Positions 10,642-11,086 of a stretch of 64,000 nt of DNA are shown here, one piece after another. Where the stretch lies: NCBI RefSeq assembly GCF_055900595.2, contig NZ_CM148325.1. The stretch is one strand, 5' to 3'. The notes under the pieces are model-generated. The model saw only the letters and a program-made list of their open reading frames with translations. It did not search any database and had not been told where the DNA came from. How positions within the stretch are numbered: position 1 is the stretch's first letter; the number at the start of each line of letters is the position of its first letter. Position numbers and translations under genes: made by a program.

Positions 10642-10996
10642 AGTCGCTGCCATTTATTCAGATAAAGAGTGCGTGGATGGTAGCAGAATTTCGCTTTGCT
10701 TACCGCCTGTTGTTAAGTGATTTGATCGATGGTTGTTAATGATGTCAACGATGGCGCAAAAATTGCCCGCTTTTGGTGCGCGCTGCGTCAGAATGGCGCA
10801 GTAATTTCCAGTAAATTTCGTCAATGATCACAATTCCAGAATTATATTTTACTTTTGCATAACATTGCGTTTTTTATTCTTTTTATTCATCATCATCGCA
10901 AACATATTCACTTTTTATGCACTTTAAATGCATGGCGTACAGTTATAACTCCTTGATTATCAGTTAATCGCCCCCTTTTATGCACTTTTATCACTG

Positions 10997-11014
10997 GCTG
11001 GCACGAACCCTGCA
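10997..11014 (+). promoter_or_regulatory. sigma54 (-24/-12) promoter of the ast operon
   Basis: CTGGCACgaaccCTGCA about 75 bp upstream of astC; the ast operon is known to be NtrC/sigma54- and ArgR-controlled. Confidence 0.55.
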
Positions 11015-11086
11015 ATCTACATTTACAGCGCAAACATTACTTATTATTAACATATAAATAACTAATTATTTACTGTAGAGGTCGCT

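Follow-up and report, generated by a model that had tools for sequence, protein, structure and literature searches.

The closest described counterpart of the DNA treated here is the control region of the astCADBE operon of Escherichia coli, whose control by sigma-54, NtrC and ArgR was reportedly already known from the work of Kiupakis & Reitzer in 2002 (J Bacteriol 184:2940), and the corresponding region of Salmonella Typhimurium is said to have been described by Lu & Abdelal in 1999 (J Bacteriol 181:1934). In Salmonella, CRP is reportedly needed for the induction of ast upon carbon starvation. The system is a textbook example of how a single operon integrates nitrogen (NtrC, sigma-54), arginine (ArgR), growth phase (sigma-S) and carbon (CRP) signals. 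The region under study is a 445-bp spacer at positions 10642..11086 of a 64,000-nt stretch of contig NZ_CM148325.1; this whole stretch is hereafter called the window, and positions are counted from its first letter. A preliminary description of the window had taken this interval for the ast operon control region, which was borne out, the interval lying with exactly these bounds between xthA and astC. We regard it as very likely that the spacer constitutes the control region of astCADBE in E. coli, shared with the divergent xthA promoter, in which NtrC and sigma-54 act through a DNA loop shaped by ArgR and, by inference, IHF, and in which the -10 element of a sigma-S promoter overlaps the sigma-54 promoter. 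As this control region is already known and well characterised, its confirmation adds nothing new on the system, and what may go beyond the known picture is limited to three points described below, a conserved IHF core, an invariant block and a constant spacing.

The identity of the locus follows from the open reading frames (ORFs) and from the way RefSeq annotates K-12 and a genome identical over the interval. The ORF on the minus strand adjoining the spacer starts at 10641 and its translation is exonuclease III (xthA), and the plus-strand ORF starting at 11087 opens a run of five genes annotated in a 100% identical E. coli genome as astC-astA-astD-astB-astE, followed by spy. The layout in K-12 MG1655 is alike, with a spacer likewise of 445 bp. 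The locus resembles K-12 astCADBE (promoter astCp2) in its position, gene order and spacer length and has an identical promoter, NtrC dyads, IHF core and one ARG box, the difference being substitutions clustered in 10889..10976. Of 5426 complete E. coli genomes, 5423 have the spacer, eight of them with 100% identity. For comparison between genera, 80 loci encoding close relatives of AstC were collected, 72 of which have xthA in divergent orientation within 700 bp and are hereafter called the orthologues; their spacers measure 390-456 bp and they come from about 20 enterobacterial genera, including Escherichia, Citrobacter, Salmonella, Enterobacter, Klebsiella, Raoultella, Leclercia, Lelliottia, Kosakonia, Trabulsiella, Yokenella, Buttiauxella, Cedecea, Pluralibacter and others. 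Since the segment 10977..11062 is identical to K-12, experiments performed in K-12 apply to it directly, and for the identical K-12 sequence the occupancy by sigma-54, the binding of NtrC to the region, the involvement of ArgR, the dependence on RpoS and the effects of CRP and Lrp are established in the literature cited below.

The preliminary description had placed a sigma-54 promoter of the form TGGCAC-N5-CTGCA at 10997..11014; the element is indeed present, its start having been put one or two bases too early, as TGGCACGAACCCTGCA spans 10999..11014 and forms the 17-mer 10998..11014 together with the preceding C. It has a single mismatch to the TGGCAC-N5-TTGCW consensus, and its GG (11000-01) and GC (11012-13) doublets are exactly 10 bp apart. 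The bare TGGCAC-N5-CTGCA pattern, found a single time in the window where 0.22 would be expected, is weak evidence alone. A position weight matrix (PWM) was built from the 49 other intergenic motifs found by chromatin immunoprecipitation with sequencing (ChIP-seq) by Bonocora et al. 2015 (PMC4591121), astC being left out, and with this matrix the element scores 17.8 bits and is the best match in the window, ranking first among about 128,000 positions when both strands are counted; the score exceeds those of 86% of the training sites and is equalled in 2.5% of shuffled windows. All 72 orthologues retain CTGGCTGGCACGA-N4-(C/G)TGCAATCTACATT with a free spacer (AACCC, AAGAC, ATCGC, ATGCC and others), at 88-91 bp from the ATG, and two fixed elements separated by a free spacer are the pattern expected of a two-part promoter.

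Published data on this promoter agree with the sequence. The K-12 sigma-54 ChIP-seq site OS17 has the astCp2 motif, with the peak centre 1 bp away from the motif centre, and astCp2 is flagged as experimentally confirmed in EcoCyc with a predicted start 62 nt from astC (PMC4591121). The orthologous Salmonella site TGGCACGAATGCTGCAAT was bound by sigma-54 in ChIP with microarray detection (PMC3844500), a peak of RpoN in genomic systematic evolution of ligands by exponential enrichment (gSELEX) falls within the astC/xthA spacer (PMC8743547), and astCp2 has been characterised as a weak sigma-54 promoter that is naturally ArgR-bound (10.1101/086108). The rule of motif centre plus 19, taken from PMC4591121, gives a predicted +1 at 11025, in agreement with the 62-nt distance reported there. 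Other matches to the sigma-54 matrix in the window include ATGGCGCAAAAATTGCC at 10751..10767, inside the NtrC enhancer, which with 13.9 bits is the third best plus-strand match and at whose position Enterobacter has a perfect palindrome, GGTGCAATATTTGCACC, with a perfect TTGCA, and also TTGGCATGATTTTAGCA (15.2 bits) on the minus strand at 51030..51046, inside and antisense to the ORF 50831..51544. None of these other matches, the two named included, is present in the published sigma-54 ChIP-seq tables.

G+C-rich palindromic NtrC-like elements had been noted upstream of the promoter at about 10770..10800, and a scan with the 17-bp consensus TGCACC(A/T)4TGGTGCA (PMC4987338), mismatches being counted against TGCACCANNNTGGTGCA, recovered them as two adjacent dyads at 10764..10780 and 10784..10800. 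The window has 27 matches as good as these, which corresponds to 0.19 expected per 445 bp, and the spacer has two. The dyads are located in an island of 55% G+C, 20 bp apart from centre to centre, and both are identical to K-12. Dyad 2 has three mismatches, a level at which there are only four matches in 64 kb, and 6 of its 7 positions are dyad-symmetric as read from the sequence. The position of dyad 1 has at most four mismatches in 51 of the 72 orthologues and comes closer to the consensus in other genera (TGCACCATTCTGGCGCA in Raoultella, TGCACCGTTTTGGCGCG in Citrobacter). A partial third site lies further upstream, where ATGGCGCA repeats the right half of dyad 2 at a distance of 42 bp, with GGTGCAA or GGCGCAA kept in most genera. 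With dyads at about -233 and -253, the ast enhancer is much further upstream than at most NtrC-dependent promoters. Binding of NtrC to this region has been reported in two studies, one of which lists astCADBE with direct-binding evidence from ChIP-seq (PMC4066584) and the other a gSELEX peak of NtrC in the astC/xthA spacer (PMC8743547).

For ArgR, an 18-bp palindromic PWM was refined on the best box pair in each of 10 K-12 upstream regions controlled by ArgR; it recovers the classical operators of argF, argI, argECBH, carAB, argR and others. Such operators consist of paired 18-bp boxes with a 3-bp gap on one face of the helix (PMC6640053). The top single box in the spacer, 10906..10923, scores 12.0 bits and overlaps the pair 10895..10933; the boxes of the spacer range from 3 to 12 bits versus 14-22 bits for the stronger box of real operators, the box consensus being wnTGAATwwwwATTCAnw. 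Boxes starting at 10833, 10854, 10874, 10895 and 10916 follow each other in a 20/21-bp register, and the summed score of a chain of four to five boxes ranks first in the window, is equalled in none of 1000 shuffles and is significant in 66 of the 72 orthologues. The 10895/10916 pair is the top pair in 36 orthologues and reaches 20-23 bits in Klebsiella and Enterobacter with its position fixed, the median score of the orthologues peaks at 10906, 10895, 10854 and 10916, and the box 10916..10933 is identical to K-12. The AT-rich repeats resembling ARG boxes that had been described at 10860..10960 thus stand as weak, phased and conserved boxes, their span being really about 10833..10933 plus a half-box at 10976..10988. 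Due to the chain test and the orthologues the ARG-box reading was kept despite the fact that neither the best single box nor the best pair is significant in this strain. Being weak but phased and conserved, the boxes fit sites which aid activation rather than block the promoter, and they also fit the weak, ArgR-bound astCp2. ArgR-dependent superinduction by arginine at the ast promoter has been described (10.1101/082537; 10.1101/086108; PMC3590144).

The half-box closest to the promoter belongs to the repeat TTTTATGCACTTT, exact 13-nt copies of which are found at 10913..10925 and 10976..10988, 63 bp or six helical turns apart, with the IHF core about midway between them. The proximal copy scores poorly as a whole ARG box; in the orthologues, TTTATGCA(C/T)TTTT is near-invariant and its spacing is fixed. 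A CRP site was considered at the proximal TTTATGCAC...TCAC and rejected because its TCAC half is not conserved, being TCGC or CCTC in most genera. The strongest pair for the ArgR matrix in the window (16.5 bits) is situated elsewhere, at 53232..53270, in AT-rich intergenic DNA between the ORFs 51607..53043 (plus strand) and 53370..54416 (minus strand).

Between the two copies of this repeat lies the only exact match to the IHF core WATCAANNNNTTR in 64 kb, at 10946..10958. It is identical to K-12, where it corresponds to 1,832,111..1,832,123 (NC_000913.3). When the orthologues are aligned, 68 of the 72 have an exact match in its place, with TAA and TTGAT(A/T) constant and the four N bases free to change, and in 70 of the 72 the core and the -24 element are equally far apart. 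No report of IHF at ast was found in a literature search of limited extent; the match and its conservation suggest that IHF may bind here. The sequence TTGATT (10953) was also considered as a sigma-70 -35 element with TTTTAT as the -10, which was rejected as the -10 has no A at the crucial position -11, and an IHF site, but not a -35 element, accounts for the TAA that is conserved 4 bp upstream. Counted from the C of CTGGCA (10998), the positions of four elements, namely -93 and -82 for TAT(T/G)CA motifs, -52 for the IHF core and -19 for the proximal TATGCA, recur in 70 of the 72 orthologues and are off by 1 bp in the other two, with the sequence between the elements unconstrained, and GATCACA is found at -172 or -173. 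Fixed spacing with free intervening sequence argues for a stereospecific protein-DNA assembly situated between the enhancer and the promoter.

Further upstream, nothing outside the core promoter is as conserved as the 25-bp block GATCACAATTCCAGAATTATATTT, which shows virtually no variation over about 20 genera and contains the palindrome AATTC-CA-GAATT and one GATC. On the minus strand it matches the SELEX consensus of Lrp at 10837..10851 with two mismatches (at most three in 64 of the 72 orthologues), and astC is a direct Lrp-activated target (10.1101/276808). The block overlaps one half of a CRP-like site, the perfect half of which reads TGTGATC on the minus strand; both halves are near-invariant in the orthologues and the 5 bp between them vary. 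CRP has been named as an ast regulator and reported to lower the activity of the sigma-54 promoter of ast (PMC3590144; PMC3900584). Comparison of the block by eye with the consensus sequences of Fur, Fis, FNR, Nac, CpxR, NagC/Mlc and TyrR revealed no fit.

At the promoter itself, TGCAATCTACATT and AATCTACATT, located just downstream of or at the -12 element, are invariant in all 72 orthologues (bases -11 to -1), and CTACATT resembles the sigma-S -10 type CTAYRMT, with the characteristic C at -13. According to published work, the astC gene depends on RpoS and is transcribed by it directly (10.1101/082537; PMC1413537); in one of these studies (10.1101/082537), RpoS ChIP-seq on cells grown as described there detected no binding in front of astC. 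Because the bases past the -12 element are invariant beyond the needs of sigma-54 and astC depends on RpoS, we infer an overlapping sigma-S promoter, which would start a few bases downstream of 11025. The predicted 5' untranslated region (UTR) of astC has 22% G+C and three conserved islands, namely ACAGCGCAAACA at its 5' end, TAACATA at 11047..11053 and its 3'-terminal 25 nt. Within it, CAGCGCAAACAT (11026) repeats CATCGCAAACAT (10894).

The coordinates of all the features are collected in Table 1. The three elements named in the preliminary description (sigma-54, NtrC-like and ARG-like) are within a few bp of where it had put them and match the published regulation of astCADBE, and what it left out are the putative sigma-S promoter, the CRP and Lrp inputs, the IHF core and the probable share of xthA in the leftmost ~70 bp.

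Table 1 Features of the xthA-astC spacer and its surroundings; centres are given relative to the predicted +1 of astCp2
Feature	Position	Strand	Basis
sigma-54 promoter astCp2, CTGGCACGAACCCTGCA; GG at -25/-24, GC at -13/-12	10998..11014	+	PWM, conservation, K-12 ChIP-seq
NtrC-like dyad 1, TGCCCGCTTTTGGTGCG, centre -253	10764..10780		4 mismatches
NtrC-like dyad 2, TGCGTCAGAATGGCGCA, centre -233	10784..10800		3 mismatches
Partial third NtrC-like site; right half ATGGCGCA (10751..10758)	10742..10758		direct-repeat family D1
ARG-box pair, 18+3+18 (10895..10912 and 10916..10933), centres -121.5/-100.5	10895..10933		ArgR PWM, 9.3 bits
ARG-box-like element, centre -162.5	10854..10871		5.5 bits (orthologue median 6.3, best 14.3); chain member
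Promoter-proximal repeat TTTTATGCACTTT (ARG-box left half and A/T spacer), centre about -43	10976..10988		direct repeat, conservation
IHF core consensus, AATCAAGGAGTTA on the minus strand, centre -73	10946..10958	-	exact WATCAANNNNTTR match
CRP-like 22-mer; perfect half AATTGTGATC on the minus strand, other half AAATTTCG conserved but non-consensus; centre -200.5	10814..10835		consensus, conservation
Invariant block GATCACAATTCCAGAATTATATTT; overlaps CRP-like half-site, holds Lrp-like 15-mer 10837..10851	10826..10850		conservation
Putative sigma-S/sigma-70-type -10, CTACATT, overlapping the sigma-54 -12 region	11017..11023	+	conservation; hexamer tentatively assigned
Predicted 62-nt astC 5' UTR; sigma-54 +1 at 11025, Shine-Dalgarno GAGG at 11078..11081	11025..11086	+	motif centre plus 19
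xthA-astC divergent intergenic region	10642..11086		ORFs, RefSeq annotation
astC, first gene of astCADBE	11087..12307	+	ORF and annotation
Conserved block with candidate xthA -10 TACCAT (10682..10677, C before it)	10674..10688	-	at least 95% conserved in 72 orthologues

Taken together, these elements are best accounted for by the course of events already published, to which a part for IHF is tentatively added. Under nitrogen limitation, phosphorylated NtrC would assemble on the two to three dyads some 225-280 bp upstream (10742..10800), with sigma-54 RNA polymerase waiting as a closed complex on 10998..11014; the DNA between them would loop, and NtrC would drive the formation of the open complex, with transcription starting at about 11025. 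Arginine-bound ArgR on the phased weak boxes (10833..10933, the main pair being 10895..10933) would raise expression, giving superinduction. The IHF core and the proximal ARG half-box would lie in the looped DNA, which IHF may help to shape, and CRP and Lrp would modulate expression; the CRP-like/Lrp-like invariant block is found further upstream. In stationary phase or carbon starvation, RpoS polymerase would use the -10 that overlaps the sigma-54 -12 element and would start a few bases downstream.

Several points weigh against this picture. The published NtrC ChIP-seq peak corresponds to 10992..11072 in window coordinates, that is, to the promoter and not to the upstream dyads; the peaks at nac, ddpX and rutA are likewise placed on the centres of sigma-54 motifs, so this dataset does not resolve enhancer from promoter. 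The best ARG box (12.0 bits, p = 0.07) and the best pair (9.3 bits, p = 0.16) do not stand out from composition-matched shuffles, and the chain signal could in part reflect intrinsic curvature, because phased A/T tracts, too, are lost on shuffling. The CRP-like core at 10817..10832 has three mismatches to TGTGA-N6-TCACA, and as 1.5 matches of this kind are expected per 445 bp, its similarity is at the chance level. The +1 at 11025 is a prediction, though one consistent with the 62 nt of PMC4591121. Finally, the bases that each protein would touch were assigned by us from the motifs, which applies to the putative NtrC contacts at 10742..10800, to the exact contacts proposed for ArgR and to the candidate CRP site.

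Among the other ways of reading the region, the one deserving most attention after the looping control region with ArgR is that the AT-rich repeats from -190 to -35 are mainly architectural, phased A/T tracts together with IHF and Lrp sites bending the loop, and that ArgR plays a minor role at most. The failure of the single boxes and of the best pair to exceed shuffles in this strain, the exact conserved IHF core amid the repeats, the Lrp-like site in the invariant block of a gene that Lrp activates directly (10.1101/276808) and the G+C content of 22-30% over 10810..10930 would all suit it. It is nevertheless unlikely, given that the 20/21-bp chain ranks first with a matrix derived from real ArgR operators, that the 10895/10916 pair rises to operator-grade scores at the same fixed position in Klebsiella and Enterobacter, and that both ArgR binding and ArgR-dependent superinduction are on record (10.1101/082537; 10.1101/086108; PMC3590144).

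Two further alternatives concern the promoter and the enhancer. The ast operon might be driven mainly from the overlapping sigma-S/sigma-70-type promoter, the -24/-12 match being occupied and largely unproductive like many intragenic sites. Such a view draws on the invariance of bases -11 to -1 beyond what sigma-54 requires, on the RpoS dependence of astC, on the place of astCp2 among the weakest sigma-54 promoters by reporter assay (10.1101/086108) and on the frequent binding of sigma-54 without transcription (PMC4591121). We hold it to be very unlikely, as astCp2 is listed as experimentally confirmed (EcoCyc, per PMC4591121), astCADBE belongs to the NtrC regulon on both direct binding and expression evidence (PMC4066584), and the upstream NtrC-like dyads are conserved; moreover, two promoters serving different conditions are complementary and not exclusive. 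Least probable of all, and close to negligible, is that the G+C-rich elements at 10751..10800 represent a second sigma-54 site or its remnant instead of NtrC sites: the 13.9-bit score of ATGGCGCAAAAATTGCC and the perfect TTGCA within the Enterobacter palindrome GGTGCAATATTTGCACC speak for it, but the sequence is absent from the published ChIP-seq tables, in which a single peak centres on the downstream motif, NtrC half-sites (TGGTGCA) inherently resemble TGGCAC, and the adjoining dyads fit the 17-bp NtrC consensus.

Beyond the looping control region known from K-12, the interval from -120 to -35 might constitute an undescribed fixed nucleoprotein module, in which an IHF bend at 10952 is flanked by the near-symmetric TTTTATGCACTTT half-boxes, IHF and ArgR cooperate in bringing the distant NtrC enhancer (-233/-253) to the weak promoter, and 10826..10850 is a further protein site. 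This is offered tentatively, as a suggestion more doubtful than probable. In such a module the geometry could draw together the stretches that ArgR binds to either side of the bend, ArgR not being a substitute for IHF. The presence of an IHF core and a 25-bp block at fixed spacing in about 20 genera suggests that the enhancer-promoter loop is more rigid and involves more proteins than in the published picture of bending by ArgR.

The spacer of this strain is also a rare allele. The segment 10885..10980 has at least 95% identity in only 13 of the 5423 E. coli genomes and 60-90% in the rest, and its flanks are ~99% identical to K-12. Out of 29 differences from K-12, 24 are within 10889..10976 and fall between the conserved elements, the exceptions being a base of the box 10895..10912 and another on the margin of the proximal repeat. 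One of the collected loci (L005) has the TTGATTATCAGTTAATCGC variant in common with the window. It is possible that 10885..10980 was imported by recombination from a divergent Escherichia lineage. A rare spacer allele of roughly 20% divergence which keeps every conserved element is a natural experiment on which bases matter.

At the other end of the spacer, the candidate -10 of xthA (C-TACCAT) is situated ~29 nt upstream of the xthA ATG, and the leftmost ~70 bp, judging by this motif and the conservation around it, probably serve xthA and not ast. A TATAAT on the minus strand (10846..10841) was considered as a divergent promoter and dropped, its -35 being neither present nor conserved. An Rfam scan of 10300..11400 with E <= 1 returned no RNA family, the spacer has no small ORFs apart from mechanical, unsupported ones of 20-56 aa, and a scan for sigma-70 promoters and terminators gave two promoter-like sites and one terminator-like site, which were not above shuffles and none of which was sensibly placed.

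Compared with other described systems, the locus is closely matched by ast of Salmonella Typhimurium, which has the same divergent xthA-astC arrangement and TGGCACGAA-N3-CTGCAAT at an equal distance from astC (PMC3844500), and the S. enterica subsp. arizonae locus (L048) has the same conserved blocks; the spacer and the sequences between the elements differ. The glnHp2 promoter, which is NtrC/sigma-54-dependent and IHF-assisted, resembles astCp2 in being weak and in having a protein-induced bend between enhancer and promoter, and the two have been grouped together as weak promoters naturally bound by IHF or ArgR (10.1101/086108). The ast region also has a perfect conserved IHF core, but the bending factor published for ast is ArgR. 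With the arginine biosynthesis operators of argF, argI, carAB and argECBH it has in common the 18-bp boxes with a 3-bp gap, as at 10895/10916, whereas the ast boxes are weaker (3-12 vs 14-22 bits), are located 100-190 bp upstream and not over the promoter, and activate instead of repressing.

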